From contig NZ_CP042905.2 in the NCBI RefSeq assembly GCF_008000775.2, positions 1,560,001-1,592,000 on the forward strand: a DNA stretch of 32,000 bases, given 5' to 3'. The notes below the pieces were generated by a model. The model searched no databases, was not told where the DNA came from, and worked only from the letters and a program-made list of their open reading frames with translations. Source of the DNA: Promethearchaeum syntrophicum. Lineage in GTDB: Archaea > Asgardarchaeota > Lokiarchaeia > Sigyniarchaeales > Promethearchaeaceae. Of this stretch, positions 6,516 through 28,283 are shown in pieces (the first letter of the stretch is position 1; each line of letters opens with the position of its first letter). The translations under genes and the position numbers were made by a program.

Positions 6516-7517
6516 TTATTTCAGAGGAATAAATTCATATAATTTATTAATTGATGGGGTAGGAGTTGAAGTTTTTTTAATTATCTCCTGAAATTCGTCT
6601 GCTATTTGCCTCATCTCATCGATAGCAGCCATTGCATGATCTCGAAGAGCTAATTCTCCTTTTTCCGATCCAAGGGCTTTTTTCAAGAAGAAAATTTGAA
6701 GGAATCTTGGATATCTGAATAATTTTTTTAAATTATCAGGATATATGGGAATATTTAGATTTTTTAAGACACAGAAACCCTCTTTAATTGCGCGAATTAC
6801 GAGTTTTATTCCATTTCTATCCTTTGCTAATTTATAGTTATCCCCTTTTGCATAAAATATTCCATTTGCCAATGGACTAACTAGAGCAATATGATATTTT
6901 AACCATGCATCTATATTATCTGTGAATACTACAGGGAATTTTGCAGCTTCAAATATTTTTTTTAACAATAATAAACGTGGAGTAATCTTTCCATTCATTT
7001 CCCCAAGTGTCATGTTACCTTTTTCTGAATGGATTGATTTGATCATTGGTCCTTCTCTTCTTCCACCGGCTGAAGGAAATCCTAATAAAATTCGTTCTTT
7101 ACGTATCAAATCTTGATAATTTTCAATCCCTGTGCCATTATTTCCCAGAAAAATGATATTTTCTGATTTATTTCGTTGTAAAATTGGTAGAATATCTAGA
7201 ACTTGATTTTTCCGCATGATTACGAAAATAAAATCATAAACATCATTCTCCTCTAAACTTTCTATTGCTGGAACATTAATTATTGTCTTTTTTTTCTGCA
7301 AATAATGGTTAATAACAATTCCATTCTTTTGGATGTCTTCTAAGCGTTTTCCACGAGCCAGAATATTGATCTCAACCTGAGTTTTATCTGTAATTTGAGA
7401 ATTATTTTCTTCACCATTTATGCATTCTTTAATGTTGTCCTTATATGAAAAGAGTTCTGACGCATATAAACTTCCAATTACCCCAGCACCATAAAATAAT
7501 ATTCTCATGTTTTTCAC
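6516..7517 (-). CDS. Ketopantoate reductase (ApbA/PanE) family NAD(P)-dependent oxidoreductase
   Basis: The N-terminus has a Rossmann motif, MRILFYGAGVIGSLYA. The C-terminal helical domain contains DAWLKYHIALVSPLANG, typical of the ApbA_C domain. An insert rich in polar residues follows the first beta-alpha unit. Substrate is not assignable. Confidence 0.55.
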   Translation of the reverse strand: MKNMRILFYGAGVIGSLYASELFSYKDNIKECINGEENNSQITDKTQVEINILARGKRLEDIQKNGIVINHYLQKKKTIINVPAIESLEENDVYDFIFVIMRKNQVLDILPILQRNKSENIIFLGNNGTGIENYQDLIRKERILLGFPSAGGRREGPMIKSIHSEKGNMTLGEMNGKITPRLLLLKKIFEAAKFPVVFTDNIDAWLKYHIALVSPLANGIFYAKGDNYKLAKDRNGIKLVIRAIKEGFCVLKNLNIPIYPDNLKKLFRYPRFLQIFFLKKALGSEKGELALRDHAMAAIDEMRQIADEFQEIIKKTSTPTPSINKLYEFIPLK

Positions 7518-10241: not shown

Positions 10242-10245
10242 AGAG

Positions 10246-10254
10246 TTTTTTTTT
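10246..10254 (+). terminator. Oligo-T tract (T9) 4 nt after the glyS stop
   Basis: The sequence reads taa-agag-ttttttttt. Confidence 0.4.
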
Positions 10255-10315
10255 ATTAAGATATTTCTTTTCAATCTCAGTTTTCAATGAATTTATTTTT
10301 GTCGAAATAAAAGAT

Positions 10316-10342
10316 TTACAAGGAGCCGATTCTTCCTTGTAA
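10316..10342 (+). promoter_or_regulatory. Perfect 9-bp stem hairpin ending 2 nt before the transposase ATG
   Basis: TTACAAGGA-gccgattct-TCCTTGTAA. The 3' arm abuts the start codon at 10345. Confidence 0.5.
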
Positions 10343-10344
10343 TC

Positions 10345-11679
10345 ATGCAATCTGTAACAACAAGCGGATTGGAGTTCCCGCTCCACCCCGCAGAAGAATC
10401 ATGCCCATATGATTATTGGCTGCCATGGCTAAAAAATCTTGCTCTAGAAATTATCAACCAAACTCATCTCTCAAAACGAAAAGGATATAAGTATTCCGCT
10501 GAAGATTTTTGGGAAATATTAATACTTCATTCCCTCATGGATCTTTCATTAGATGAAGCTTCTGATGAGTTGAATAAATTACTTTGGCAGAAGGAAAATG
10601 CCACCCGTCGCAGGAAAATTCAACCGAGACAATTTTTAGGAGAACTTGTACGGCGGGAAAGAAAGTGCCCTAATGGAGATCAAGTACGCAAATATCGGCA
10701 ATCACTCCCACTTTGGATATTAAATAGATTAAATGATATGATATTTGATGCCCAACTCAATTATGCTCTTCAAAATGGATTTATTTCCCATCAAATTGAC
10801 TTGTTAATTGATAATACTGATCAATGGTACTATGGATCAGAGCGATTTCCTCAAAATCCATTCCTTACAAAAGGTTATAATGGCCCTGGCACATCTCGTA
10901 AACGAAATTATCTTGGTCTGATGATAAAAAGCAAAGGAACCAGCTTATTTGTTGGAATTCATCTCATTAAAAGAAAGCACTCAAATGTCCCAAAAATCCT
11001 TCATTGCATTGATAGAATAATTCAACATGGGTTTAATGTTAGAGCTGTGATAGGTGATCGATGGTTCCCGACCTATGAATTATTGTCCGAATTAAATCCG
11101 CGTGGGATCCATTATATTGGCCCCTATCGAAAGTGGAAGCCAATTAAACGGCTTTTAGAACGTTATTTAAAAAAAGATATTCACTATATTCAATCATACA
11201 TCGTTCGAGGCGCACCAAAGAAATTTTATCACTTGCCAGGGATCCACGTGTGGTTAATTTTTACCAATCGACAAGGTCGGCGGTTACGGGATATTCGACA
11301 GGATTTCAAACAAAGAAGGATTGATTTAACTGAAGCAATGAAGGAAATAATGGTGATGATGACTACAAAGCCTCCACCTAGATGCAAAAAGGCTCAACAA
11401 GGTTGGGCTTCAAGTATTTGTCAAAAATATGATCGTCGGTGGCAAATTGAGACTGGTTTTCGGGATATAAATCGACTTGGTCCGCCATCCAATGCACATA
11501 CAAATGCCCGGAAATTAACAATGCGTTCAGTTCAATACTGGCTTTATAATGCATGGCAAATTGAGAAAGCTCGAAGGAGGCGACAACATAATATGTTAAA
11601 AAGTTGGAAACGAGGCCCTACCCTTCGACAATTCTCATTTATTCAAACTCAACTTCGGTTAGTGGAGAAGAAAATTTAA
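10345..11679 (+). CDS. DDE transposase, IS4-like superfamily (ISH3/IS701-like)
   Basis: The 444-aa ORF carries a DDE triad in context: LLIDNTDQWYYG, AVIGDRWFPTYE, YDRRWQIETGFRDINR (a Y-x2-R-x3-E signature). The ORF is visibly richer in G/C than its neighbours (e.g. cggcggttacggg, ggccctggcac, aggaggcgacaac). Confidence 0.85.
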   Translation: MQSVTTSGLEFPLHPAEESCPYDYWLPWLKNLALEIINQTHLSKRKGYKYSAEDFWEILILHSLMDLSLDEASDELNKLLWQKENATRRRKIQPRQFLGELVRRERKCPNGDQVRKYRQSLPLWILNRLNDMIFDAQLNYALQNGFISHQIDLLIDNTDQWYYGSERFPQNPFLTKGYNGPGTSRKRNYLGLMIKSKGTSLFVGIHLIKRKHSNVPKILHCIDRIIQHGFNVRAVIGDRWFPTYELLSELNPRGIHYIGPYRKWKPIKRLLERYLKKDIHYIQSYIVRGAPKKFYHLPGIHVWLIFTNRQGRRLRDIRQDFKQRRIDLTEAMKEIMVMMTTKPPPRCKKAQQGWASSICQKYDRRWQIETGFRDINRLGPPSNAHTNARKLTMRSVQYWLYNAWQIEKARRRRQHNMLKSWKRGPTLRQFSFIQTQLRLVEKKI

Positions 11680-11864
11680 AACAAGTTCAAATGCAAGAAA
11701 TCTACTTTAATCAACCCAAAATAAATGGAGGAAATAAGAAAAATTTAAATTAATCATTCACTGAATCTATATCCTATCAATTATTTTTATTTACAGCTTT
11801 CTTTAAAGAGATATTTTTATATTTTTTATAGCAAGTTTTTTATATTTGTTTTTGTATTTTTTCA

Positions 11865-12209
11865 ATGATGGAACAAATAAATTTTCGATTATTAAAAGAT
11901 GAAAAAGAAATTTTAACAACAATTGCACGTTCACGAGGTGTATCTGTAGCAGAATTTGCCAAAAAAGCAGTTTTAAAAGAAATTACTCCATTAAGATTAG
12001 AATTAGCATTTAGATTATTGAAAGAAGGAAAAATTGGATTTAAAAGGGCATGGAAGATTTCAGGGTTAACATATCATGAATTTTTAATTAAATGGAGTAA
12101 TCGAGGAGCTGAAGAAAAAATCAGCCAAAAATCAGAAGAAAAAGGTTTGAAATATGCATTATCTTTTGATTTGGAACCCTTTTTAAAGATAAATGAAAAT
12201 AAGGAATAA
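11865..12209 (+). CDS. Antitoxin-like protein: N-terminal ribbon-helix-helix fused to a UPF0175-like domain
   Basis: INFRLLKDEKEILTTIARSRGVSVAEFAKKAVLKEI has the RHH pattern. It is followed by LELAFRLLKEGKIGFKRAWKISGLTYHEFLIKWSNRG, which follows the UPF0175 pattern (LAxxLYxxGKxSxGKAAExxG). A PIN-like gene follows 24 nt downstream. Confidence 0.6.
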   Translation: MMEQINFRLLKDEKEILTTIARSRGVSVAEFAKKAVLKEITPLRLELAFRLLKEGKIGFKRAWKISGLTYHEFLIKWSNRGAEEKISQKSEEKGLKYALSFDLEPFLKINENKE

Positions 12210-12233
12210 ATTCATCAATAAATTGGAATTATT

Positions 12234-12734
12234 ATGATTTTCTTAACAGATACATGCTTTTGGACCCATTTATTCGATTTATATTCATTCGGGAAAATAG
12301 ATTTAAGGAAATATTTAGTGAATTTAAAATGGGGTTTAACCAAAGAAGTATTAAACGAAATAGCTGCATTAAATATGGATTCTTATTTTCCAAAATCAGA
12401 TTCTTACATTATTCCATTAAATAAAACAGAACTCATAAATTTTCTTCACAAATATCCTTTTCTTTCAGAGTTAGATAGAGCAGATCAAACTTTAGCTGCA
12501 ACTGCATATAGAGATAAATTAACATTAATAACTGATGATGGAGGTTTGTTCATGGTCTCTCAAGCAATGGGTATTTCATCTCTAAGATTGCCCCATTTTT
12601 GCATACTACTTACAAAGGAGGGAATAATAACCAAAAATTTAATGTTCAGAATAATGAAGTATTGGAAATCAATCAATAGATATTTGAAACAAGATTTAAA
12701 AAAATGGGAGTCAGCTTTACATGATATTCGATAA
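12234..12734 (+). CDS. PIN-like nuclease of the DUF3368 type (usual partner of UPF0175 antitoxins)
   Basis: MIFLTDTCFW.. provides the N-terminal acidic residue. ..LDRADQTLAATAYRDKLTLITDDGGLFMVSQAMGISSLRLPHFCILLTKEGIITK follows the DUF3368 consensus layout (LDxGExxxIxLA..LLxDDxxxR..A..G..v.Gt.GvL..A...G.I). Confidence 0.6.
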   Translation: MIFLTDTCFWTHLFDLYSFGKIDLRKYLVNLKWGLTKEVLNEIAALNMDSYFPKSDSYIIPLNKTELINFLHKYPFLSELDRADQTLAATAYRDKLTLITDDGGLFMVSQAMGISSLRLPHFCILLTKEGIITKNLMFRIMKYWKSINRYLKQDLKKWESALHDIR

Positions 12735-13205: not shown

Positions 13206-14696
13206 TTATAAATTATAAATTGAGCGATATTTTTCATTCAAATAATCCAGGAAATATTTCGTATCCGGGGGTTGATTGCAGATTTTCTCCATTAAATCTA
13301 TTGGATCATATAGACTTCCTTTATTATGAACGTTTGAAACCAACCAATTTCTAATTTTGCTAAAATCTCCTGAAGCAAGTTGCTCTTCCCAATTGGGGAT
13401 ACTGGTTTTCATGGTTGCCAACATTTGACTATTATAGATGTTACCTAATGCATACGTTGGAAAATATCCAAATAAACCTGCATACCAATGAGTATCTTGT
13501 AATACCCCTTCCGCATCATTTTCAATTTTCATTCCCAAATATTTTTCCATTTTGTCATTCCAAATACTTGGTAATTCGGCAACAGATATTTTCCCGGCAA
13601 TCAAATCTTGTTCAATTTCAAACCGAAGAATTATATGCAAATTATATGTAACCTCATCGGCGTAAATGCGAATTTTACTCGGGATAATTGCATTAACACT
13701 TTTAATGAACGTATCCGTATCCACCGATTGAAAAGCAGGCATATATTTCTGAACTACATTTGGATAAAAATTTTTTAGAAAAGTGGGGTTTTTTCCAACT
13801 ATATTTTCACAAAATCGACTTTGGCTTTCATGAATACCCATCGAGACTGTATCTCCAACTGCAGTATACCAATGCTCTTCTGGGGTATTTAAATTGTATA
13901 ATGCATGACCTCCCTCATGAAAGGTCGAATATATGGCTGCTGTCGGATCCTCTTGATAATGAGTGGTAATGCGGACATCTTTTGCATAACCAGTGGTAAA
14001 TGGATGTTCCGCTTCATCTACCCGTGATCGATTTGGGGGCAATCCAAGAAAATTCATTATCCACTTAGATACATGTTTTTGGGCGTCAACAGGAATATTT
14101 TTATCGAAGATAGAAATATCAGGAGGATTATCTGCAACTGCGTCTTGGTATTTCTTGATTAATTTGATGACACCATCCCTTAACGGCGTGAAATAGCTAT
14201 TAATACCTGCTGCGGTCATTTTTGGTTCATATTCATCCAACAATACATCATACATGGGTTTTTCCGCATCTAATGCTTGGGCTCTTTCTTTAACTAACTC
14301 CAGTAATATCTCCAGATCTGGCTTTACAAGTCCGAAATCTTGTTTCCTCTTTGCCTCATACCATTTACCTTCGGTTTTTGTAGATTGTTTTGTTAATCTA
14401 ATCACAAGGTCTGCTGGGATTTTAGTTTCACGATCATAATCGCGCTTCCAGAGTTCTACATTTCTTTGTTGAATCTTTTCTAACCCAGAACATTGTGAAA
14501 TTAATTTCCCAATTTGGGGGTCTGTCATTTTAACGTGAGTAATTTTACCTAAAGTTGATAATGCTTCACCTCGTTGTTCAATGCCTTCAGAAGGCATGTA
14601 GGTGCGCATATCCCAACCAAGAATCGAAGAACAATTTGAAAGTAGCCTTACTTCCTTCATTTTTTTACTCAATTCATCATAAGTAGTGTGAGTCAT
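13206..14696 (-). CDS. M32 family metallocarboxypeptidase (carboxypeptidase Taq type)
   Basis: The 496-aa ORF has the zinc motif HEGGHALY plus the family motifs EHPFTTG, DVRITTHY, GIHESQSRFCEN and IRIYADEVTYNLHIILRFEIE. Confidence 0.9.
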   Translation of the reverse strand: MTHTTYDELSKKMKEVRLLSNCSSILGWDMRTYMPSEGIEQRGEALSTLGKITHVKMTDPQIGKLISQCSGLEKIQQRNVELWKRDYDRETKIPADLVIRLTKQSTKTEGKWYEAKRKQDFGLVKPDLEILLELVKERAQALDAEKPMYDVLLDEYEPKMTAAGINSYFTPLRDGVIKLIKKYQDAVADNPPDISIFDKNIPVDAQKHVSKWIMNFLGLPPNRSRVDEAEHPFTTGYAKDVRITTHYQEDPTAAIYSTFHEGGHALYNLNTPEEHWYTAVGDTVSMGIHESQSRFCENIVGKNPTFLKNFYPNVVQKYMPAFQSVDTDTFIKSVNAIIPSKIRIYADEVTYNLHIILRFEIEQDLIAGKISVAELPSIWNDKMEKYLGMKIENDAEGVLQDTHWYAGLFGYFPTYALGNIYNSQMLATMKTSIPNWEEQLASGDFSKIRNWLVSNVHNKGSLYDPIDLMEKICNQPPDTKYFLDYLNEKYRSIYNL

Positions 14697-14776: not shown

Positions 14777-16177
14777 CTATTCGCTCTTGGAATTCTTTAA
14801 ATATTCCAAATAATCATTCTCTTTTTGAATATGGATTTTGGATATGTCTTCCTTCTTAGAATTCCATTCTTTTCCATGCAAAGGATACCAAAGAAATAAA
14901 ATTGTAGCGATAAAGAAGAAAATTGCAGGAACAAGGAAGAAACCAAGCATGATTCCATCTTTAGCATGATCGGTTTGGGTGTTGAGAGTTTCATCAAAAC
15001 CATATGCAGTAAAGATAGTTAAATAAAGCCAATTAGCTATGCTGATTGAAGGCTTCATAAATAGTGCATTTATACCAGCATAGGTTGTTTCTCTTCGTTT
15101 TCCAGTTAGCGTTTCGTCGTAATCTATAAGGTCTCCCATAATTGGCTGTTCGCTAACAACTCGCGCAGCAAATCCAATCCCAATAAAAATCATGATAATA
15201 ACTGCAGGAACTAATGTATTGGCTAAAAAGAACGCAATTAGGAAAATTATAGATGTTATTAAGAGTCCCGCAAATTGGATTTTCTTTAATCCATATTTTG
15301 AGATATATAAGCTGAAAACAAAAGTAAAAATAAAAAGTGATAAAAACACAATCACAATTGGCACCATTGCCATGAATTCTTCTAATTGGAGAATAAATTG
15401 AATATAATAGAAAATACCAGAGAGTAATGTGGTATATCCAATCACCCACATAAAGTTGCTACTTTCAAAGATTAAAAATGGCTTATTTTTCAGACAAGCT
15501 TTTAACGAATCGATGATTCCTAATGTGTCTTCTTTTTGCGTATAATCATTTTCATATAAGAAATAACTCCCAACAAACATGATTACTGAAGATATTATTC
15601 CTACAATAATCATTGCTGGTCGAAAAGCAGGATCGAGTTCAGTAGTTTCACCTGTTAAAAGAAACATCGGGAGGGCCATGGAAACTAAAACACCTAAAGC
15701 ACCAAGAATTGTAGTATATACGCCTAAATTTGCTCGGGATTTTGCTGTTATTGCCATTTCAGCAGGCAAAGAATATGTCACAAGACCGACGAGCGTAAAG
15801 ATCGAATCAAATACAAATAATACAACTATGAAATTTAGAACAAGGGCAGTTTGAGAGTTCCCAAAAAACGGAAACCACGAGAGGATGAATAAAAATCCAT
15901 AAATAAATGCTCCATAACGGATATAGGGGATTCTTCTGCCAATTTTTGTTTTGGTTCGCTCTTCTAATATTCCAAAAAGAGGGTCGTTAATGGCGTTCCA
16001 AAATCCAAATATCAACCATGCAATCCCAATTAAATCCGAAGATAGCCCCAATTTTATATTATAAAAAAAAGTAATACTCCCAAAGACGGTCCCTTCAAGG
16101 GCAGATGATGCAGTTCCTATTAACCCGAAAGCCCATTTCGTCTTTCTGGGAATTTCATCGTTATAATTTTCTCCCAT
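14777..16177 (-). CDS. GPH-family (glycoside-pentoside-hexuronide:cation symporter-like) MFS transporter
   Basis: The 466-aa ORF has about 12 hydrophobic helices. The GPH signature lies in the loop 2-3 region: NAINDPLFGILEERTKTKIGRRIPYIRYG (DxxxGxxxDRTxxxxGRRRP-like). Confidence 0.8.
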   Translation of the reverse strand: MGENYNDEIPRKTKWAFGLIGTASSALEGTVFGSITFFYNIKLGLSSDLIGIAWLIFGFWNAINDPLFGILEERTKTKIGRRIPYIRYGAFIYGFLFILSWFPFFGNSQTALVLNFIVVLFVFDSIFTLVGLVTYSLPAEMAITAKSRANLGVYTTILGALGVLVSMALPMFLLTGETTELDPAFRPAMIIVGIISSVIMFVGSYFLYENDYTQKEDTLGIIDSLKACLKNKPFLIFESSNFMWVIGYTTLLSGIFYYIQFILQLEEFMAMVPIVIVFLSLFIFTFVFSLYISKYGLKKIQFAGLLITSIIFLIAFFLANTLVPAVIIMIFIGIGFAARVVSEQPIMGDLIDYDETLTGKRRETTYAGINALFMKPSISIANWLYLTIFTAYGFDETLNTQTDHAKDGIMLGFFLVPAIFFFIATILFLWYPLHGKEWNSKKEDISKIHIQKENDYLEYLKNSKSE

Positions 16178-16293
16178 ATTTCTTATTGAATTTCTATCTT
16201 TTTAATTGGGATCTTAAATATCTGACAAAATTAATAAAGGTAATACAGAAATTGATGAAAAAAATAAAAGAACCTTAACTATTACAATGATTA

Positions 16294-16731
16294 TTACTTC
16301 TTTTTTGATGAATCATACACCCCATATTTAATTGCTATACCGAATGAACCTATTGATAGAAAAAGAAGCCTAGAAACAGCAAAAGAAATAATTAGGTTTA
16401 TGATATAAATCCCAATTCTCATGATTTGATTCAAATTAAAATTTTTTCTCTTGGGGATTGTATAAATTCCATTTGCAATATTTATTGAAGATACCCCTAA
16501 GATGCTAAAGGTACTATAATAATTTGTATAGATATAAGGATAATTACTTAGATACGTGATCCTATCAATTACGCCGAAAAAAATACCATACAGATTTGAC
16601 AGAACAAAATTTGAGACCTGGATCTTCCAAAATAAATGTTTTATTAACCTATTTTGGGAATTCTTTGGTTCAATTTCTGATGAATTTATGTTCAATTTTT
16701 CCCCAATTTTTTCGATTTTTTTCTTATCCAT
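16294..16731 (-). CDS. Small membrane protein, paralog C of a tandem triplet (unknown family)
   Basis: This is a 145-aa protein from the ATG at 16731: MDKKKIEKIGEKLNINSSEI...KYGVYDSSKKK. An AAGGTG SD lies ~10 nt upstream. It has three hydrophobic segments. The track start at 16764 (an ATGA overlap with the paralog B stop) adds 11 non-conserved residues. The N-terminus and C-terminal tail are conserved with paralogs A and B. Confidence 0.7.
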   Translation of the reverse strand: MDKKKIEKIGEKLNINSSEIEPKNSQNRLIKHLFWKIQVSNFVLSNLYGIFFGVIDRITYLSNYPYIYTNYYSTFSILGVSSINIANGIYTIPKRKNFNLNQIMRIGIYIINLIISFAVSRLLFLSIGSFGIAIKYGVYDSSKKK

Positions 16732-16760
16732 ATTTTTTTTGCACCTTACTATTATTTTGA

Positions 16761-17204
16761 TCATACCTTCTGTTTTGATGAATCATATACATCATAATCC
16801 ATTGCCATACCCAATAGACCTGAAGATGATGCACTTAAACTATAAAAGACCCAATAGCCGATAAGTGAAAGAATGAGATTCATGCTAAATATTAATATTC
16901 GTTGTATTTTTTTTGAAATAGAATTAGATTTTTGAAGTATTGTCAATATTCCATTTGTTAAATTGACGGATGAAACACCTAATAACCCCATTTTTGCATT
17001 CTTTGTTTGAAATGGATAAAAACTCTGATAACTTTGTTCAAATAAACCAAATATAATGCCTAGAAGGCTCGATAGAACAAAATTTGTTATGTTTATAATC
17101 CAAAATGAGTGTTTTTTAAACCAATTGGGAGATTTTCTTTTTTTAATTTCTGAAGAATTTACATTCAATTTTTCGCCAATTTCATCAATTCTTTTTTCAT
17201 CCAT
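16761..17204 (-). CDS. Small membrane protein, paralog B of a tandem triplet (unknown family)
   Basis: This is a 147-aa protein from the ATG at 17204: MDEKRIDEIGEKLNVNSSEI...DYDVYDSSKQKV. An AAGGTG SD lies ~11 nt upstream. The track start at 17252 adds 16 non-conserved residues. Confidence 0.7.
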   Translation of the reverse strand: MDEKRIDEIGEKLNVNSSEIKKRKSPNWFKKHSFWIINITNFVLSSLLGIIFGLFEQSYQSFYPFQTKNAKMGLLGVSSVNLTNGILTILQKSNSISKKIQRILIFSMNLILSLIGYWVFYSLSASSSGLLGMAMDYDVYDSSKQKV

Positions 17205-17261
17205 ATACTTTCTACACCTTTTTATTTTCAAATTTATTCTTAAAAAAATCAAAGAACCTTC

Positions 17262-17708
17262 TTATTGCTTCTTTTTTGATGAATCATAGACATTATATAG
17301 AATTGGGTTAGACAGTTGATCTGAGGATGCAACTAAACTATATAAGAATCCATATCCGATAATTGAAAGAATGAGATTTATACTAAATATCAATATTCTC
17401 TGCTGTTTTCGTAATATAGAATGAGGTCTTTGAGGAATAGTTAATATTCCATTTGTTATATTAACAGGAAACACACCCAATAATCCAATCATTCCTTTTT
17501 CACTAAAAATAAATGGATAATGGCTCTGATATCGATGTTCAAACAAACCAGAAATCAACCCAATTGTGCTTGAAAGTATTAAATTCAAAGCGTTTAGAAC
17601 CCAAAAAGAGTTTTTTTTTTTTGATCTAATTTTATTTTGCTCTTTTTCTATTTCAGAGGGTTCAACATCCAGTTTTTTACCAATTTCTTGTATTTTTTCA
17701 TTTTCCAT
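17262..17708 (-). CDS. Small membrane protein, paralog A of a tandem triplet (unknown family)
   Basis: This is a 148-aa protein: MENEKIQEIGKKLDVEPSEI...LYNVYDSSKKKQ. A GAAGTGA SD-like element lies upstream. It starts 25 nt after the methyltransferase stop, with no intervening T-run on the coding strand. Confidence 0.7.
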   Translation of the reverse strand: MENEKIQEIGKKLDVEPSEIEKEQNKIRSKKKNSFWVLNALNLILSSTIGLISGLFEHRYQSHYPFIFSEKGMIGLLGVFPVNITNGILTIPQRPHSILRKQQRILIFSINLILSIIGYGFLYSLVASSDQLSNPILYNVYDSSKKKQ

Positions 17709-17733
17709 ACTTATTCACTTCAATTTTTTTTTT

Positions 17734-19029
17734 TTAATTTCTTATTTGTATCGGATTCTCAATCTTTATTTGAGAATTATTATGACTAAAATTTAACAAT
17801 TCATTTTTTATCAGTTGGTAAATTTTTCTGTCTTTTTCTTGCATTAATGCTTGGTGATAATAATTCAAGGTTTTATATTTTCTTTCATCAAGCAATATAC
17901 TTAATCTAGCTAAATTCCAATTATTTAGAGCATTATTTGGAACAAAATCTAGTGATTTTTTAAAAAATGTGTAGGATTTATTATGATCTTTAGAAGCAAA
18001 TGATTTTATCCCTAAATTTGTTAATTTCAGGGATTTGATATCTATAACTTCTAAGCTGAAGTAATCGCAGTCTTCTCCTTGAGTATTTGAAAGATATGTA
18101 AAGGTATCAGAGATATTCTCGTTATTAGTATTAGTAGTTAAAAATTTTGAGAGTCTATCTATCCAATAATCTTGGAATCGAGTGAAATTCAAAATTAAAT
18201 CTTTTTCTTCCTTCTTCCATTTCATCCAGACCGATAGAAATATTGTTGGAGAATTAATTTTTTCAAGATAATCGAGAATTTCTGTTTTAATACTATGCAC
18301 TCGGACTTTAGGTAGAAGGGATAGGAAAATTTTCGCAATTTTTGGATGAAATAATGAGAATAGTGCAATCATTGAAACGATGTTTTTTATTGAGAAAAAA
18401 TCTCGATTATCGTAATCATACTGTTTCTCAATCACGTTGATGCAGTTTTTTTCTACTGCATCTAAGAATAATACATCAAACTCCTTGAATTCATTATATA
18501 TCATCCATCTGAAAGTAGCAGTTAACCCTTTTTTATCCAATAGAGAAATTTTTTCAGGTTTTTGGGCTATGATTCGGAAACTTTTTTGATCTTTAAAGCT
18601 CTGTGATTTAATGAAATTTACATGAACAAATCCTGTGGAAATTAAAATATCCTTAAGAAATTTAGGAATTAGACCAATTTTATGAGTATTTCCGGGTAGA
18701 TCAACTCCAAATAAAAAACGTAAGGTATTTCTCTTTTTCAAATTATTTCTTGTTAAAAGTCTTAAATATCCTTTGAAAAAGTTGGGAGCTTCGATAACTA
18801 ATTTTCCATTTGGTTTAAGCACGCGAAACCATTCTGCAATTAAAAAAGGAAGGGTTATGACATCAAAATGCTCGAGTATATGCGAGGCTTCAATATCATC
18901 AACACCATTATCTTCATATTGTAAATGACGTATATCAGTAACTACATCTGCAATTTCAGATTCAAACATATCGATGTTGATATATCCTGGTTTATAATAA
19001 ATCCCGCAGCCCAAATTTAATTTAATCAT
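17734..19029 (-). CDS. Class I SAM-dependent methyltransferase (Methyltransf_11-like N-terminal domain) with a ~270-aa C-terminal domain of unknown function
   Basis: The N-terminus carries motif I (IKLNLGCG), then ..DNGVDDIEASHILEHF.. and ..RVLKPNGKLVIEAPN. The remaining ~270 aa are unrecognised and end in a TPR-like helical pair (SYTFFKKSLDFVPNNALNNWNLARLSILLDERKYKTLNYYHQAL). Confidence 0.75.
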   Translation of the reverse strand: MIKLNLGCGIYYKPGYINIDMFESEIADVVTDIRHLQYEDNGVDDIEASHILEHFDVITLPFLIAEWFRVLKPNGKLVIEAPNFFKGYLRLLTRNNLKKRNTLRFLFGVDLPGNTHKIGLIPKFLKDILISTGFVHVNFIKSQSFKDQKSFRIIAQKPEKISLLDKKGLTATFRWMIYNEFKEFDVLFLDAVEKNCINVIEKQYDYDNRDFFSIKNIVSMIALFSLFHPKIAKIFLSLLPKVRVHSIKTEILDYLEKINSPTIFLSVWMKWKKEEKDLILNFTRFQDYWIDRLSKFLTTNTNNENISDTFTYLSNTQGEDCDYFSLEVIDIKSLKLTNLGIKSFASKDHNKSYTFFKKSLDFVPNNALNNWNLARLSILLDERKYKTLNYYHQALMQEKDRKIYQLIKNELLNFSHNNSQIKIENPIQIRN

Positions 19030-19101
19030 ATGATTTTTTCACAACTATCTTATTTCATTATCCTTTCTTTTTTCTCTCATCAGTAGATTCAATATTATTT
19101 T

Positions 19102-20142
19102 TCATCTTTTGTAGGATTTTGTAGGTTTTACATCTAATTTATTTTCTTCAATCATTCGCATGCAAAATGGAGTGTTATGCAATTTTCCAGACATATGTAA
19201 GGAAACAGAATTACATCCTCCTTTACATCTGTCCGCAAAATAACATCCTTGGCAGTTCGCTCCAATGTTTTCTACAGTAAATTTTCGATTATATCTAAAC
19301 GAATTGGGGTCCTCCCAAATATCAATAAAACTCCTTTCTCTAATATTATCTTCAATAAATTGATTATTTCCCATCGAAAGACACCCAACTATTCCTCCAT
19401 CGGATGTTATTCCTATTGAGGATATCCCCGCAGTACATCCCTTCCAATGGCCTCCTCCTTGGAGTAAATGTGAAAAATAGCCAAAGCAATGCGCGCCAAT
19501 TACAGGATATTCCTTGAATTTATTTTTGATTCCTTCAGAGACAATAAACATCGGAATTGCATAATATTCATCTTCATCAATTATAAGGTTTGGATCAAGA
19601 TTTCCAAAGGGCATTCCGATCTGAATCTGCCAATTCACTTTCTTTTTTTTTAAAATATCCCGAATAGCAAGCAGTTCTGAGAAATTAGTTTTCGTTACTG
19701 TTGTAATTACCGTAGTTTGTATTCCATTTTGATTTAATAGATCAATGGTTTTCATTACTGCCTTGTAGGATCCTTCTCTCCTAATTGAATCATGGGTTTT
19801 TTCAGTTCCGTCCAATGAAATTCCAATAACGCTCGTTTCCAACTCAACAAGATCATTGATATATTTTGGTATCAAGAGCCCATTTGAAACAAAAGCTAGT
19901 TCCATGCCTAAATCTTTAACGCACCAAGCAAGAGACTTCCAATCTTTTCTTACGAAGGGCTCACCACCCATTAAGCTTACTGTATTACAACCTGATTGTG
20001 CTAAATCTTCGCATAACTTAAAACATTCGTCTGTCGATAATTCATTCTCTCTAGCAGTACCTGCGCTTGAACCACAATGTTTACAATTCATATTACACGC
20101 TAATGTTGTTTCCCACACAGCACAATCAAGTTTATATTTCAT
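19102..20142 (-). CDS. Radical SAM enzyme with a C-terminal SPASM (auxiliary 4Fe-4S) domain
   Basis: The radical SAM cluster motif is WETTLACNMNCKHCGS (CxxxCxxC), and the GGE motif is SLMGGEPF. The SPASM region is HCFGY..GCTAGISSIGITSDGGIVGC...CQGCYFADRCKGGC (C-x2-C-x5-C-x3-C). The gene is 346 aa, the size typical of peptide/protein-modifying SPASM maturases. Confidence 0.9.
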   Translation of the reverse strand: MKYKLDCAVWETTLACNMNCKHCGSSAGTARENELSTDECFKLCEDLAQSGCNTVSLMGGEPFVRKDWKSLAWCVKDLGMELAFVSNGLLIPKYINDLVELETSVIGISLDGTEKTHDSIRREGSYKAVMKTIDLLNQNGIQTTVITTVTKTNFSELLAIRDILKKKKVNWQIQIGMPFGNLDPNLIIDEDEYYAIPMFIVSEGIKNKFKEYPVIGAHCFGYFSHLLQGGGHWKGCTAGISSIGITSDGGIVGCLSMGNNQFIEDNIRERSFIDIWEDPNSFRYNRKFTVENIGANCQGCYFADRCKGGCNSVSLHMSGKLHNTPFCMRMIEENKLDVKPTKSYKR

Positions 20143-20154
20143 CCGAAAATCATC

Positions 20155-20168
20155 AATATTTTATCTAA
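20155..20168 (-). promoter_or_regulatory. TATA-like element upstream of the radical SAM gene (minus strand ttagataaaatatt)
   Basis: The element lies 13-26 nt upstream of the ATG at 20142. It sits downstream of the T-rich tract that follows the GDH-like gene, which suggests the rSAM cluster is its own transcription unit. Confidence 0.3.
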
Positions 20169-20244
20169 CTATTATGTGGATTAATAATAAATCTTGTATT
20201 TAAACATTTGAGGTAAGAATATCGTACATTTAATGGGAAGAATA

Positions 20245-20272
20245 ATAAAAAAGTGAACGAAAAAAAGAAAAA
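20245..20272 (-). terminator. T-rich tract after the GDH-like gene (minus strand tttttctttttttcgttcactttttt)
   Basis: On the minus strand, T-runs of 5, 7 and 6 lie within about 30 nt of the stop at 20280. Confidence 0.4.
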
Positions 20273-20279
20273 TTCAATA

Positions 20280-21521
20280 TTATGGATAAATTCCCCTAAT
20301 CTCCTCTGCAAATGCAACTCTTTTTATTGCTAATATCAGAGCTGCTGATCGGAAACTTATATCCCTCTCTGTTCTAAGGGTATACACTTCATTAAACACT
20401 TTGACAATTATTCGTTGAAGTTCTTCCTCAACACGCCCTAAACTCCATGCTAATTGCTGAAAACCTTGAACCCACTCAAAATAAGATACAATGACTCCTC
20501 CTGCGTTAGCTAAAATATCCGGAATTACTGGAATATTTCTGTCCCATAGTATTTTATCTGCTTTCAAAGAGATTGCAGCATTCGCACCTTCAATAATTCG
20601 CCGACATTTCAGATTATTCACATTATTTTCGGTAATTTGATGGTAGGTAGCACACGGAATTAACCAATCACATTCCATTGTTAAAAGTGTTTCATTTGTG
20701 ATTTTTTCTGCATTAGGATAATCCAATAAGTTGCCGTGCTTAAGTTTGTAATCAATCACATCCTGAACATCTAAACCTTCTTGATGATATATTCCATTTT
20801 TACTATCGGAAATTGCAATCACTTTTGCTCCTAATTTATCGGTAGCAAGCGCAAAATTACGCCCAACTTGGCCGATTCCTTGGATTACAACGCTTTGACC
20901 TTGAATTTCTTCTAATTCTTTGCGTGCCCATTCATGAAGTATATATCCAATACCTAACCCTACGGCTTGTTCTCGTCCGTATATGCCTCCGGTATCGATT
21001 GGTTTGCCCGTAACTACTCGATGCGTTGTGTGTCCTATGCCTACGGAATAAGTATCCATTATCCATGACATTATTCGTTCATCTGTATTTAAGTCAGGTC
21101 CCATTACATCTTGTTCAGGACCAATTACGTTGATTACTGCCGCCGTATAACGGCGTACTAATCGTTCAAGCTCTTTATCAGAAAGAGTATTTATATCTAC
21201 TTGGATTGCACCTCCAGAACCCCCAAGGGGGATACCTACTAACGCAGTTTTTAAAGTCATTATAGTGGCTAACGCTTTCGTATCATCCAAAGAAATATCG
21301 GAGTTGATGATGAGACCTCCCTTAGCAGGACCGATTGTATTTGAATGAAGCACTCGAAAACCTTGGATCATTTGTAATGATTTATCATCACGTTTTAATG
21401 GACAATTAACTACAACCATACGTTCTGCCTTGGTTAACAATAGAAGCTCCTTGTTATCTATCCCTATTTTTCTGCCAATGCTAAATATTTTTTCATTCGT
21501 ATCTTCTAGAAGAGATCCCAT
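20280..21521 (-). CDS. Glutamate dehydrogenase-family paralog with a degenerate active site (likely non-canonical or inactive)
   Basis: The 413-aa ORF is collinear with the upstream GDH (FRVLHSN, GPAKGG, VTGKP, QGIGQVG, ANAGGVIVSYFEW, RGIYP). However, the glycine-rich catalytic motif reads GGSGGA (21207-21224) instead of GG(A/G)KGG. In addition, KGGIR has become KGGLI and EGANGPTT has become EGANAAIS. Confidence 0.85.
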   Translation of the reverse strand: MGSLLEDTNEKIFSIGRKIGIDNKELLLLTKAERMVVVNCPLKRDDKSLQMIQGFRVLHSNTIGPAKGGLIINSDISLDDTKALATIMTLKTALVGIPLGGSGGAIQVDINTLSDKELERLVRRYTAAVINVIGPEQDVMGPDLNTDERIMSWIMDTYSVGIGHTTHRVVTGKPIDTGGIYGREQAVGLGIGYILHEWARKELEEIQGQSVVIQGIGQVGRNFALATDKLGAKVIAISDSKNGIYHQEGLDVQDVIDYKLKHGNLLDYPNAEKITNETLLTMECDWLIPCATYHQITENNVNNLKCRRIIEGANAAISLKADKILWDRNIPVIPDILANAGGVIVSYFEWVQGFQQLAWSLGRVEEELQRIIVKVFNEVYTLRTERDISFRSAALILAIKRVAFAEEIRGIYP

Positions 21522-21540: not shown

Positions 21541-22800
21541 TTATGGATAAATTCCCCGTAATTCAACCGCTTTAGCCACTCGTTGAACGGCAATTAAATA
21601 AGCAGCTAACCGATAACTAATTTTCTTTTCATTCTTTAGATCTCTAATTGCATCAAAAGCACGTTTCAAAATTGTTTCTAATTGTTTATTAACTTCATCT
21701 AAATCCCAGAAAAGACCTTGTCGGTCTTGGATCCACTCGAAATACGAAACTGTCACTCCGCCAGCGTTAGCTAGCACATCTGGAACCACATCAATACCAT
21801 TTTTATTCAAAATCTCGTCTGCTTCAGGAGTAGTAGGTCCGTTTGCACCTTCAACTATAACTTTACAATTTAACTTTGATGCATTTTCAATCGTAATTTG
21901 ATTTTCTAAGGCACAAGGGCAGAGGAAATCACATTTTAATTCCAATAATTCTTTATTGCTTATCTTTTTAGCTTTGGTATATCCTTCAAGTGTACGATGT
22001 TCGGGATCATTTATGTAAGCAAACATTTCATCAATATCTAATCCATCTGGATTATAATATCCTCCCGAAATATCAGATGTGGCAATAATTTTATATCCGT
22101 AACTTTTGAGAGTTGTACAAGTATATTGACCTACATTACCGAAACCCTGAACAACAACAGAGCAGTCTTCAGGTTTCATATCATGATTTTTTGCATATTG
22201 ATCTGCAACATATGCAACACCGTGACCCGTAGCTTGTGTTCTTCCTAAACTGCCTCCAATTTCTACTGGTTTACCTGTTACCACACCACTAATTGTTGCC
22301 CCTTTTGCCATGGAATAAACATCCATGATCCAAGCCATCATTTGGGGAGTAGTATTCATATCTGGTGCTGGAATATCGATCTCTGGCCCAATAACATTAA
22401 TTATTCCCTGAGTGAACCTTCTGGTTAATCTCTCCAATTCATTTTGGCTCATTTCATGAGGGTTGCATGTAACTCCACCTTTGGCACCTCCAAGAGGTAT
22501 GCCAACAGTAGCACATTTCCATGTCATCCACATTGATAAGGCTTTAACTTCATCCATATCAACATTTTGAGCATAACGTATTCCACCTTTTCCCGGTCCA
22601 CGTGCATTTGAGTGTAAAATTCTGAATCCTTCAAAAACTTTCAAGGATCCATCATCCATCTTCACGGGGCAATTCACAATAACTATTCTCTGCGGGTGAG
22701 ATAGATATTCATATAGGTCTTTGTTGAGATCTAAGTAATCACAAGCATTTCTTAACTGTTTGAGGGCGTTTTCCCACGGATTTCCAGTCATTTTATTCAA
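21541..22800 (-). CDS. gdh: Glutamate dehydrogenase (hexameric ~415-aa archaeal/bacterial type)
   Basis: The 419-aa ORF has canonical motifs: GPGKGGIRY, MTWKCA, IPLGGAKGGV, PAPDMNT, VTGKP..GGSLGR, QGFGNVG, EGANGPTT, ANAGGVTVSYFEW. It lies 19 nt upstream of the degenerate paralog, with a GGAG in the spacer. Confidence 0.9.
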   Translation of the reverse strand: MNKMTGNPWENALKQLRNACDYLDLNKDLYEYLSHPQRIVIVNCPVKMDDGSLKVFEGFRILHSNARGPGKGGIRYAQNVDMDEVKALSMWMTWKCATVGIPLGGAKGGVTCNPHEMSQNELERLTRRFTQGIINVIGPEIDIPAPDMNTTPQMMAWIMDVYSMAKGATISGVVTGKPVEIGGSLGRTQATGHGVAYVADQYAKNHDMKPEDCSVVVQGFGNVGQYTCTTLKSYGYKIIATSDISGGYYNPDGLDIDEMFAYINDPEHRTLEGYTKAKKISNKELLELKCDFLCPCALENQITIENASKLNCKVIVEGANGPTTPEADEILNKNGIDVVPDVLANAGGVTVSYFEWIQDRQGLFWDLDEVNKQLETILKRAFDAIRDLKNEKKISYRLAAYLIAVQRVAKAVELRGIYP

Positions 22801-23147: not shown

Positions 23148-24941
23148 TCAATTTTCTTTCAAGCTTCTGATCTTTTCTTGAATCTGTTTCTGAAAATCTT
23201 GGTCAGACGTACCTGGATTACGGTAAATATTTCTCGGGTGGTCTAATCTGACTTGATTGATGCAATTATCACAAAAATTACAGATGCAGAGAGAATGCAT
23301 AACATCTCCTCGTTGAGATATCATTGAAACGTGATAAGGTACTCCATGTTTTGAACATCTTTTACATTGATTACTTCTCAGAAGCATTTCTGCCCGTTCC
23401 CGTTCAATTTTTAGGGCATCACTCTTGTGAATATTCTCCTTTTGAAATTCTAATGAATTTATAAATAATACTGGATTTTCGATTACAAAATCATCATTAA
23501 TGACCCTATATCCTTCTAAAAATTCCCACCTTTTCAAATTTTCTTCTAATATCGAAATGGACATGTTGTATAACTTTAAAATATCTCCTACTTTGATTTG
23601 AAATGTGATTTGACTCATCCGCTTAATTTCATCCAGTAACCATAATTCTGGGTTATCTTGCTTATTTATTTTTTGACGATATAATGGTTTATCCCTCACA
23701 TTCGCACGAAGAGGATCTCTCAGCAAAACTGCTTTAATATCGTTTAAACTATCTTCTGGAGGGTTTATCTTGAAATATTTTTCGTTGGCTCTCAAAACCA
23801 ATTCTTCCAAGGAATTTCTGGCTTGTCTTCGCTTATGGAAAAAATCAACCGCATGGATAAAATAAATACTTGCTTCTAAGAGATGTCCTTGATATAAGAG
23901 CACATTACCCATTCCATTCCATGCATTACAGATATTCAGTCGTGCTTTCATTGCGAGGGTGAAATAATTTTCTGCTTCAATATACCTTTCCTGAGCCATC
24001 ATAAGCATGCCCAAAAAATAGTAAGTTTCTTTTTTGTTATGTTTCGATTTCAGGGCGTTAAGAAACATTCTCTCAGCTTTTGGATAATCTTTTCTGAGAT
24101 TCATAGCAATCAAGCCCAAATAATCCTTAGCATGGTACATTTCGGGATTAAATTTCAATGTTTGATGAAAATCACTCTCAGCACCTTCGACATCCCCATC
24201 CAAATATTTTTGTAGCCCATTTTTCAGATATGCTTCACTTTTATCACTCAAACATTTTCGTTCTTTGCTTTTTTGTTCTACCATTTGTATAAATTCCCTT
24301 AGTTTTTCACTCTTTTTTCCTTCATGTATTTTATCTAAGAATTTTTTCGTATAAAGATCAGGACCAGTTATTTCATTTGCATTCTGATTGATGAGTTGGC
24401 GCTCGTATTCTTCCTTTTTTTGGGTTGGGATTGATTTCATCTTATGGAAATTCTTGGCAATGGGGATTTTAGATAGGATAGATGTGAAATACGGGTTGAA
24501 ATCTAAATACCCTTTTCTATCAATACCCGTAAACGTATATCTGAATCTCCATTGAGATCCAGTAGATTCATAAAAAGCTAAATGGACTTGAGTGAGTTGG
24601 TCACAAATTGTGATGCTCATGCTTAGGTTTGTATTTTTTGCTGTGATAGAATAATGGTAAATTCTCTCATTATCGGGACACACTTCGACGGTACCCTTTC
24701 TGATCGGAGATTCCCAAAATGTTTTTCGTTCTCCGAATATGGATAATTCTATATTGATCATGTCGTATTGGGTCTGATTCAGCAAAATTAATCCATGTTC
24801 ATCCCGTTTATATATGCGTCGATTTTTTCCTGTGATTTCCTTGTTTCCAAAAATTTCAAATTCAACATTTAAAATTTTTTTTGGGTAGGGAGTCAAATCC
24901 AAAATTTCCGCTTTTTCGGAATATTGAATCTCTATTGGCAT
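23148..24941 (-). CDS. TPR-repeat protein with an N-terminal beta-rich domain and a C-terminal Cys/His-rich (zinc-binding-like) tail; function unknown
   Basis: This is a 597-aa ORF. The central region has at least 4 TPR-like units (GDVEGAESDFHQTLKFNP.., YPKAERMFLNALK.., YIEAENYFTLAMK.., LLEASIYFIHAVD). The C-terminus reads CKRCSKHGVPYHVSMISQRGDVMHSLCICNFCDNC. Confidence 0.5.
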   Translation of the reverse strand: MPIEIQYSEKAEILDLTPYPKKILNVEFEIFGNKEITGKNRRIYKRDEHGLILLNQTQYDMINIELSIFGERKTFWESPIRKGTVEVCPDNERIYHYSITAKNTNLSMSITICDQLTQVHLAFYESTGSQWRFRYTFTGIDRKGYLDFNPYFTSILSKIPIAKNFHKMKSIPTQKKEEYERQLINQNANEITGPDLYTKKFLDKIHEGKKSEKLREFIQMVEQKSKERKCLSDKSEAYLKNGLQKYLDGDVEGAESDFHQTLKFNPEMYHAKDYLGLIAMNLRKDYPKAERMFLNALKSKHNKKETYYFLGMLMMAQERYIEAENYFTLAMKARLNICNAWNGMGNVLLYQGHLLEASIYFIHAVDFFHKRRQARNSLEELVLRANEKYFKINPPEDSLNDIKAVLLRDPLRANVRDKPLYRQKINKQDNPELWLLDEIKRMSQITFQIKVGDILKLYNMSISILEENLKRWEFLEGYRVINDDFVIENPVLFINSLEFQKENIHKSDALKIERERAEMLLRSNQCKRCSKHGVPYHVSMISQRGDVMHSLCICNFCDNCINQVRLDHPRNIYRNPGTSDQDFQKQIQEKIRSLKEN

Positions 24942-26936: not shown

Positions 26937-28283
<1,347 letters not shown>

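Follow-up and report, generated by a model that had tools for sequence, protein, structure and literature searches.

The 32,000-nucleotide stretch of the Promethearchaeum syntrophicum MK-D1 genome analysed here (the window; contig NZ_CP042905.2, positions 1,560,001 to 1,592,000) contains five minus-strand genes separated by short spacers. They encode a radical S-adenosylmethionine (rSAM) enzyme with a SPASM domain (19102..20142; QEE16170.1, 346 aa), a class I S-adenosylmethionine (SAM) methyltransferase with a helical and tetratricopeptide repeat (TPR) extension (17734..19029; QEE16169.1, 431 aa), and three paralogous small membrane proteins, A (17262..17708; DSAG12_01997, 148 aa), B (16761..17204; DSAG12_01996, 147 aa, identical to P0014) and C (16294..16731; DSAG12_01995, 145 aa). 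Paralogs C, B and A are QEE16166-8. The public labels are 'radical SAM protein', 'methyltransferase domain-containing protein' and, for all three paralogs, 'hypothetical protein'. An earlier note, made from the sequence of the window, had read these genes as a candidate cassette in which the small membrane proteins are modified by the two enzymes. All five open reading frames (ORFs) are present as described there, and the spacers are 72, 25, 57 and 29 nt, given internal ATG starts for B and C (MDEKR.. and MDKKK..), which agree with the GenBank annotation. A Shine-Dalgarno-like element also precedes each paralog, AGGTG in the case of B and C and GAAGTGA in the case of A. Our comparative tests of family, linkage, copy number and short forms agree with the idea of a modification cassette, and we consider it slightly better than an even chance that this is a three-component system of the kind that makes peptides synthesized on the ribosome and modified after translation (RiPPs), similar to the spliceotide systems but acting on membrane proteins.

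The rSAM enzyme has the CX3CX2C motif (CNMNCKHC) at residues 16-23 (20074-20097) and eight further cysteines (C219, C236, C254, C297, C300, C306, C310 and C327), and it matches the Pfam models Radical_SAM (1.7e-24) and SPASM (5e-7). A full SPASM domain is therefore present, as had been claimed, and its region lies at about 19162-19488. The enzyme has neither a RiPP recognition element (RRE) nor any other extension at its N-terminus. Its top NCBIfam models are both of peptide-maturase families, TIGR03913 (GDL-motif peptide maturase, 206 bits) and TIGR04103 (nif11-class maturase 3, 202 bits), and all other NCBIfam SPASM families score 135 bits or less. None of the NCBIfam equivalog cutoffs is reached, those of the two best models being 592 bits for TIGR03913 and 725 bits for TIGR04103, and the enzyme belongs to no housekeeping family. 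Among profiles of Protein Data Bank (PDB) structures, the best full-length matches are PqqE, anSME, SuiB and CteB, at 53-65 bits.

In the methyltransferase, the catalytic domain (about 18550-19029) is followed by a helical middle part (about 18055-18534) and by TPR repeats (about 17785-18054). The Pfam model Methyltransf_11 matches residues 29-79 only, the G-x-G SAM loop is at residues 7-9, and the Rossmann part is short. The AlphaFold (AF2) model (pLDDT 81.9, pTM 0.81) places after the Rossmann part an all-helical region at residues 166-415, with about 2.5 TPR repeats at its end. A fold search with this model gave generic class I methyltransferase matches only, over about 140-200 residues, and none for the middle part of helices, and the model shows no winged helix of the RRE kind. 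Positions 333-407 of the family profile align with TPR proteins (E down to 3e-39), and TPR models of Pfam match 4 of 15 family members. The unrecognised extension of about 270 aa that had been described for this enzyme does exist, but its end is recognisable as TPR repeats by profile, by Pfam and in the AF2 model. This part is, by sequence and model, a predicted peptide-binding domain. The methyltransferase is kept along its whole length next to the rSAM enzyme; E-values between lineages range from 1e-75 to 1e-166.

The three small proteins are genuine paralogs of one another. The other two are 56% and 39-40% identical to A, identity among the three is 39-56%, and 46 alignment columns are invariant. 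The AlphaFold model of the small protein is a confident three-helix bundle (pLDDT 85.7), in keeping with the earlier description of a protein of about 145 aa with three transmembrane (TM) segments. After an N-terminal helix (residues 2-12) comes a long helix that continues into TM1 (17-60). Residues 61-71 form a loop, 72-90 a second helix and 101-132 a third, with a basic loop between these two and a flexible tail (pLDDT 63-70) at the end. Three elements recur in each paralog: a leader helix (codons 17649-17708 in A, 17145-17204 in B and 16672-16731 in C), a Tyr-Pro loop (17511-17519, 17010-17018 and 16534-16542) and a C-terminal core, which is L-Y-N-V-Y in A (17286-17300), D-Y-D-V-Y in B (16785-16799) and K-Y-G-V-Y in C (16315-16329). 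The K-Y-G of paralog C is the sole canonical x-Y-G site in the window. Searches of the small proteins, and likewise of their short variants, against Pfam and NCBIfam gave nothing significant, and the fold search of the model against the PDB gave no match at E<0.5.

A word-indexed protein search with the small-protein alignment gave just five new members, and it was an exhaustive profile search that yielded the family, with 138 clusters, 54 of them at E<=1e-10. Nearly all are 115-175 aa long and match over the full length. The N-terminus of the family profile is a strongly conserved helix, M-N-x-E-K-L-x-E-I-G-x-K-L-D-V-x-x-x-D-I, which corresponds to the AF2 helix at residues 2-12; the loop reads Tyr-Pro-(Tyr/Phe), and the C-terminus reads (I/P/V)-(M/L)-Y-G-V-Y-(S/D)-(K/R), followed by a variable polar tail. 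Across 95 diverse members, Y64, P65 and Y138 are invariant, and L13 and V140 (87 of 95) are nearly so. Position 139 is G in 69 members, N in 17, D in 5 and S in 4, and the residue before the tyrosine is most often M (25) or L (23). The V-Y of the core is never at the C-terminus but is trailed by 2-25 residues. An invariant tail rich in Tyr, Asp and Ser had been proposed from the three paralogs; family-wide only Tyr138 and Val140 are kept, and the D-S-S-K-K-K stretch is lineage-specific. The net charge is +4.0 before TM1, +0.2 in loop 1, +2.9 in loop 2 and +0.5 in the C-terminal tail, which weakly suggests a three-TM topology with the N-terminus inside and the C-terminus outside. The middle helix is called by a simple hydropathy scan in no more than about half of the family. 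Given the three-TM topology, the Tyr-Pro loop would probably lie together with the Y-G-V tail on the outer face of the membrane. One 147-aa member in the related locus L001 (10001-10444; P0010) carries the JGI label 'ABC-type branched-chain amino acid transport system permease subunit', evidently a mis-annotation.

Short forms were found at loci that the membrane-protein hidden Markov model (HMM) had missed, by inspecting the gene next to the rSAM gene. In Thermoplasmata these are soluble forms of 57-85 aa that lack TM segments and retain leader and core, for example ..LGKKLGLNEENID...GYFGGYYGTISINDF and ..ISELITLGKKLGLNEENIDAMLKD...GPPGYFGGYYGTISINDFKS, and one of them (L052) has three tandem YKAGTxYGT(V/I)S units in a single peptide. 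A Helarchaeota form of 65 aa (..RGYPYHQKG.., a Pro/Lys linker, ..PPSYGVYSRK) has the core motifs only and no recognisable leader helix. In the Elusimicrobia forms the leader helix is followed by a single TM or lipoprotein-like segment and then by an Ala/Pro linker that leads to ..CGPYPGYPCGTRYYTVSPADF. The Tyr-Pro and Y-x-V motifs are only 4-10 residues apart in short forms (GPPGYFGGYYGT; GPYPGYPCGTRYYTV), and a bacterial-type protein (L007) has two copies of GYPF and two of IKYNVY. The earlier note had assigned a leader-like role to the conserved N-terminus and had placed the modification site in the C-terminal tail. Both suggestions gain from these sequences: the TM-less Thermoplasmata versions keep the N-terminal element along with the core, and the Tyr motif is kept in short forms and repeated in some peptides.

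The trio is conserved across genomes. A scan with one genome per species gave more than 579 loci, of which the best 80 were analysed together with the window (81 loci, each reaching up to 8 kb on either side of the rSAM gene; linkage was counted with family HMMs). The best 80 come from archaea (Loki-/Promethearchaeota, Heimdall-, Hod-, Hel-, Hermod- and Thorarchaeota, Thermoplasmata, Nanohalo- and Undinarchaeota) and bacteria (Patescibacteria, Chloroflexia and Elusimicrobia). A full-length methyltransferase of about 430 aa is found within 4 kb of the rSAM gene in 71 of the 81 loci, precursor-like ORFs within 5 kb likewise in 71, and both in 63; most loci without one member of the trio are contig ends. 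All 158 precursor-like matches lie within 5 kb of the rSAM gene and none farther out in the flanks. When the neighbouring ORFs were clustered, only three families were widely kept, and the next family occurred in at most 10 loci; no protease, exporter, RRE gene or Y-like ORF was conserved among the neighbours. Small-protein copies number 1-7 per locus. Gene order varies: rSAM, methyltransferase, small protein in the window and L001; three small genes, rSAM, methyltransferase in L004; two small genes divergent from rSAM and methyltransferase in L005 (Heimdallarchaeaceae); and methyltransferase, small protein, rSAM in L007, a bacterial-looking contig. The association also emerges when the search starts from the small proteins, with the rSAM and methyltransferase genes adjacent to them in L001, L097, L098 and L099. 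The proposed co-occurrence of the small proteins with both enzymes was thus found from either direction.

Several loci deserve separate mention. A Heimdallarchaeota metagenome-assembled genome (L012, 4126-8011) has seven tandem divergent small-protein copies upstream of the rSAM gene, and L014, L020 and L038 have five each. In L001, the canonical copy (6926-7372, minus strand) lies downstream of the methyltransferase gene, a third family member lies about 5 kb upstream, and a divergent copy (2556-2987, plus strand; 27% identical) lies on the opposite strand between a glutamate/leucine-type dehydrogenase (GDH) gene and the rSAM gene. The L001 copies differ in number and site, so copy number and placement change fast even among close relatives. 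Seven Thermoplasmata loci (L049, L050, L052, L053, L075, L080 and L081) carry the short-precursor variant with two or three tandem rSAM/SPASM paralogs, and often also a conserved 461-aa protein (MNPFLNPIFL...). No methyltransferase gene was found within about 7 kb in L050 and L052. L007, whose 427-kb contig is bacterial-looking (PNPase, ribosomal proteins S15 and L19), contains an intein-interrupted FtsH (9039-12236; matches to Intein_splicing and LAGLIDADG).

The small proteins are very likely the substrates of the two enzymes rather than their partners, because the soluble versions of 57-85 aa keep the ends without the membrane segments. Conserved ends, a dispensable middle, tandem divergent copies and repeated cores are what is expected of substrates and not of a membrane partner.

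The rSAM enzyme has 602 homologues at E<1e-20, of which the best 120 are all 53-88% identical to it and 330-370 aa long. Its closest bacterial homologue, from Agathobacter, is 36.5% identical over the full length (tblastn/BLASTP). Identity is about 34% (33-34%) to the GDL-motif maturases of Burkholderia, Ralstonia and Azospirillum, 32% over the full length (E=2e-60) to a plp-type 'nif11-class maturase 3' of Nostoc, which served as the stand-in for PlpX in sequence comparisons, and 26-28% to MftC and TIGR04053. In a rough neighbour-joining tree without bootstrap, the methyltransferase-linked rSAM family forms its own clade with Agathobacter as sister; the next group out contains the Nostoc, GDL and DUF1843-type enzymes, and MftC and TIGR04053 lie outside. 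The loci of these relatives encode candidate substrates of a recurring type. The Nostoc locus is a plp-type spliceotide cluster whose Nif11 precursor has the same MSIESAKAFYQR leader as Pleurocapsa PlpA3 and the C-terminal sequence ..IALYGLPPELF. The DUF1842/1843 neighbours in Burkholderia contain ..AAMYGVAIQ.. (..AAMYGVAIQSAAASGDL..), ..MPMYGVGLQ.. and ..TPYGVAIH... In Agathobacter rectalis (L091, about 2860-2970), an unannotated ORF of 35 codons (MFNLEELSLEFVKISELKTSKNLFGPVMYGTGVRM) just upstream of the rSAM gene ends in ..GPVMYGTGVRM and resembles a precursor gene, with its M-Y-G site, that annotation has overlooked. On plasmid pAT1 of Aureibacter tunicatorum (L092, 1698-4468), a tandem array of three DUF1843 peptides, which carry x-Y-A/G close to the N-terminus, precedes an rSAM/SPASM enzyme and an unrelated class I methyltransferase. 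This is an independent bacterial case of a layout with tandem precursors, a splicease-like rSAM enzyme and a methyltransferase.

Tyramine excision is the loss of C8H9NO (-135.06 Da), which leaves an alpha-keto-beta-amide. PlpX removes tyramine at X-Y-G (PMC11002830), and the core of its substrate PlpA3 is AVAAMYGVVFPWD (supplement of PMC10533398). Binary spliceases have no Y protein, and they are bound and activated by an alpha-helix of the leader (PMC11414181). At the level of sequence, the family consensus M/L-Y-G-V behind a leader helix fits the splicease pattern closely. The earlier note had not recognised the cassette from any described system; that no longer holds, since the rSAM enzyme groups with PlpX-type spliceases and GDL maturases, and (M/L)-Y-G-V matches the x-Y-G of their substrates. 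Our literature search found no paper on these genes or on membrane-protein or Asgard spliceotides; the survey of Scott et al. 2022 was outside that search. According to the account in PMC11626197, that survey found spliceotide clusters in bacterial and archaeal genomes, so the present subtype may already be listed in it.

These observations suggest the following course of events, whose order is suggested only weakly. The conserved N-terminal helix would dock the nascent small protein on the cytoplasmic enzymes. It might bind and activate the rSAM enzyme itself, like the leader helices of binary spliceases, or it might bind the TPR domain of the methyltransferase. The rSAM/SPASM enzyme, as a relative of the tyramine spliceases, would then attack the invariant tyrosine of the C-terminal (M/L)-Y-G-V-Y. 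It is reasonably likely that Tyr138 of the Y-x-V motif is its target, and the reaction might be tyramine excision. The methyltransferase would install a second modification, for which, speculatively, the invariant Tyr-Pro is a candidate target or docking site, because both this motif and the methyltransferase are absent from the related Nostoc, Burkholderia and Agathobacter loci that were examined; the Aureibacter locus, also examined, has a methyltransferase, but an unrelated one of class I. The mature product would probably be the full-length membrane protein, since no protease or exporter is conserved with the cassette, and its modified tail and Tyr-Pro loop would be on the same, probably outer, face.

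Several points weigh against this reading. The rSAM enzyme is far under the trusted cutoffs of both TIGR04103 and TIGR03913 and forms its own clade, so its chemistry could have diverged from that of its splicease relatives, and enzymes of the TIGR03913 type are themselves only putative spliceases. Known spliceases are specific for X-Y-G according to published descriptions, and in one natural case a D-Y-G site was left unspliced (PMC11626197). Y-G is replaced by Y-N or Y-D in two of the window's three paralogs and in every close orthologue of A, the glycine after the tyrosine is missing in 27% of the family, and the Aureibacter DUF1843 peptides likewise have Y-A. The predicted topology would put the target motif outside the cell, in which case cytoplasmic iron-sulfur enzymes would need to modify it before the protein enters the membrane. 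Described spliceotide systems have nothing that corresponds to the invariant Tyr-Pro or to the obligate methyltransferase, and simple tyramine excision accounts for neither. The chemistry of the cassette is a prediction from sequence comparison.

Because of the Y-N, Y-D and Y-A sites and the unspliced D-Y-G, crosslinking stays a serious rival to splicing, although we regard it as rather unlikely. In this alternative the cassette and its substrates would be the same, and the enzyme would form a C-C or C-O crosslink, either a Tyr138-x-Val140 cyclophane of the triceptide type or a staple from the Tyr-Pro loop to the tail. SPASM enzymes such as StrB, DarE, 3-CyFE, MftC and PqqE commonly form such crosslinks. 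The conserved pair of Y138 and V140 with a varying residue (G, N, D or S) between them would suit an Omega1-X2-X3 pattern better than a strict X-Y-G. The Tyr-Pro and Y-x-V motifs are also duplicated jointly (2+2 in L007, and two tyrosines in each of the L052 repeat units), are close neighbours in the short forms and lie on the same membrane face in the model of the three-TM form. However, the nearest relatives of the enzyme are the PlpX-type and GDL-motif families and not the crosslinking ones (MftC 122, PqqE 66, DynA 80 and WgkB 111 bits), and the consensus M/L-Y-G-V is the same as the PlpA3 splice site.

It is improbable that a diffusible product, such as a redox cofactor like mycofactocin or pyrroloquinoline quinone (PQQ) or a secreted inhibitor, is freed at the C-terminal Tyr/Val motif and that the membrane part is only a carrier. 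MftA ends in G-V-Y, which the core resembles, and a tyrosine is the key residue in PqqA. The tail past the motif is moreover short, variable and poorly ordered, and spliceotide ketoamides inhibit proteases (PMC11626197). However, the V-Y is never C-terminal, as decarboxylation of the MftC type would require; an RRE like MftB or PqqD, a peptidase and downstream tailoring genes are not conserved; and the MftC and PqqE models are far under cutoff. Still less probable is that the small proteins, as integral membrane proteins with a confident helical-bundle model and no protease or exporter among their conserved neighbours, are an anchor, immunity factor or transporter-like subunit of enzymes acting on a lipid, cofactor or small molecule, as the archaeal rSAM/SPASM lipid modifiers Hbs/Gms do (bioRxiv 10.1101/2023.10.20.563219), because the Thermoplasmata and Helarchaeota equivalents are soluble peptides that keep the leader and/or the Tyr motifs, the copies are tandem, divergent and variable in number with cores repeated within proteins, the distribution includes DPANN, Patescibacteria and Elusimicrobia, the rSAM enzyme has no COG4001 domain, and the methyltransferase has a predicted peptide-binding TPR domain.

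Other assignments of the rSAM enzyme were considered and rejected. It is not a housekeeping enzyme of heme, molybdenum cofactor, sulfatase, PQQ or mycofactocin maturation, for which every NCBIfam model is far under its cutoff. For the heme and heme d1 enzymes AhbC, AhbD and NirJ it scores 120-130 bits against cutoffs of 500-650. Mycofactocin maturation by MftC was excluded by a score of 122 bits against a cutoff of 265 (TIGR03962), by the absence of an RRE gene and by the residues that trail V-Y, and PqqE by 66 bits against 381 (TIGR02109). The H-GDGT bridge synthase Hbs/Gms is defined by an N-terminal COG4001 lipid-binding domain of about 100 aa (bioRxiv 10.1101/2023.10.20.563219), which cannot be accommodated here because the rSAM motif begins at residue 16. 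A search for anti-phage defence genes with PADLOC gave only a likeness of the rSAM core to pVip (82 bits, residues 10-193), and the other four proteins had no match. Sactipeptide or ranthipeptide formation was rejected since paralogs A, B and C have no cysteine and hence no donor for a thioether. Membership among the GDL-motif maturases was rejected as well, the TIGR03913 cutoff being missed and the small proteins having neither the GDL motif nor a Pfam or NCBIfam family.

Possible transcription signals were read from the intergenic DNA. In the region upstream of the cassette (20143..20279, minus strand), T-rich tracts follow the GDH gene, and an A/T-rich box, TTTAAATA, lies upstream of where the rSAM gene starts. 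This box, which the earlier note had called TATA-like, is a candidate promoter only. The terminator-like tracts said to bracket the block, after the GDH gene and after paralog C, can both be read directly in the sequence, the latter as AAGGTTCTTTTATTTTTTT (16258..16276, minus strand; T7 at 16264..16258). The accompanying statement that no spacer carries a coding-strand oligo-T must be corrected, because the spacer between A and B holds a T7 run (17248..17242) within AAGGTTCTTTGATTTTTTT (17242-17260, minus strand), a near-copy of AAGGTTCTTTTATTTTTTT. A near-identical 19-nt motif, AAGGTTCTTT(G/T)ATTTTTTT, is found 3' of the stop codons of paralogs A and C, and the terminator-like tail was apparently duplicated along with the paralog gene. 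Since the T7 run in AAGGTTCTTTGATTTTTTT nearly copies the tract after C, paralog A may have its own weak archaeal terminator with partial termination. The DNA is about 30% GC, and 12 of the 17 runs of T5 or longer in 16178-20279 lie inside the five genes. T5-7 runs are common inside genes too, and therefore neither oligo-T reading proves transcript structure. A scan for sigma-70 promoters and hairpin terminators gave counts at or below the shuffled expectation, its models being uninformative for an archaeon, and Rfam and transfer RNA scans of the window gave no match.

The neighbourhood of the cassette is one of amino-acid catabolism. Three GDH paralogs lie within 8 kb (20280-21521, 21541-22800 and 26937-28277), including a tandem pair immediately upstream of the cassette, and an M32 carboxypeptidase (13206-14696) and an MFS_2 transporter (14777-16177) are nearby. 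A 597-aa protein with weak TPR hits is encoded upstream of the GDH pair (23148-24941, minus strand); it is syntenic in L001 (3351-5144) and has no link to the cassette in distant genomes. A functional link of the cassette to the GDH, MFS and M32 peptidase genes was considered and dropped. The synteny is seen in L001, the one close relative with flanks examined, and is absent from distant loci, so that it was treated as coincidental.

A more far-reaching reading, less likely than not, is that of a widely conserved, previously unannotated and mainly archaeal system that makes backbone-edited or crosslinked, methylated integral membrane proteins by means of a splicease-derived rSAM enzyme and a TPR-methyltransferase acting on a tyrosine pair, one in the Tyr-Pro loop and one in the Y-G-V tail, that comes to lie at the outer face. 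Its product would possibly be a membrane-tethered electrophilic ketoamide or a protein-derived cofactor, and not a secreted natural product. If true, this would be the first such modification of membrane proteins, present in the cultured eukaryote relative MK-D1, and radical SAM backbone editing would reach from secreted bacterial peptides to integral membrane proteins. Spliceotide chemistry would extend to Asgard, Thermoplasmata and DPANN archaea and would there have two features for which current models give no explanation, a TPR-methyltransferase as obligate partner and a second site with an invariant tyrosine. On the cell envelope of a syntroph that ferments peptides, an alpha-ketoamide tethered to the surface would be a candidate for inhibiting proteases or for serving as a reactive handle. 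Five genes with generic labels in one of the few cultured Asgard archaea are given a testable role, and a family that neither Pfam nor NCBIfam contains is described, with at least 138 sequence clusters and with short soluble variants that are easy heterologous test substrates.

Among known systems, the spliceotides (PlpX/PcpX/RhaX with PlpA/RhaA; TIGR04103-type, IPR026482) are among the closest to the cassette. Both have a full-SPASM rSAM enzyme, alignable end to end at 32% in the case of the Nostoc enzyme, and TIGR04103 is one of the two best curated models for the present enzyme. The M/L-Y-G-V of the precursor core is the same as the splice sites of PlpA3 and Nostoc, the precursors are multiple and in tandem, and a conserved leader helix occurs without an RRE, as in the 'binary' type II systems. 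However, the present rSAM enzyme is in a separate clade, far under the cutoff, and is shorter (346 versus about 420 aa). Its precursors are membrane proteins with two to three TM segments and not Nif11/NHLP peptides, and the residue after the tyrosine is N, D or S in 27% of the family, including paralogs A and B. The cassette also has the invariant Tyr-Pro and the obligate 430-aa TPR-methyltransferase and no Y protein, and its hosts are mainly archaeal.

The GDL-motif maturases (TIGR03913) with DUF1842/DUF1843 proteins are the best NCBIfam match to the rSAM enzyme, with 33-34% identity. Their substrates have x-Y-G-V (Burkholderia) or x-Y-A/G (Aureibacter), some being proteins of about 200 aa, and the Aureibacter locus combines three tandem precursors with an rSAM enzyme and a class I methyltransferase. 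They differ in that the present small proteins have no GDL motif and no similarity to DUF1842/1843, the Aureibacter methyltransferase shares only the GxG motif with that of the window, and the C-terminal extension of about 130 aa of the GDL maturases is absent from the present enzyme.

Mycofactocin (MftA/MftB/MftC) and PQQ (PqqA/PqqD/PqqE) synthesis resembles the cassette in that an rSAM/SPASM enzyme acts, or in the cassette would act, on a conserved tyrosine, together with valine or glutamate, near the C-terminus of the precursor. In contrast, the present rSAM enzyme is below the cutoffs, the cassette has no RRE chaperone and no downstream genes for cofactor processing, and its V-Y is internal. 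The rSAM/SPASM enzyme QhpD makes Cys thioethers in QhpC of quinohemoprotein amine dehydrogenase, whereas the window paralogs contain no cysteine. QhpD modifies a protein subunit that stays functional, not a released peptide, and is a precedent for a SPASM enzyme acting on a larger or folded protein.

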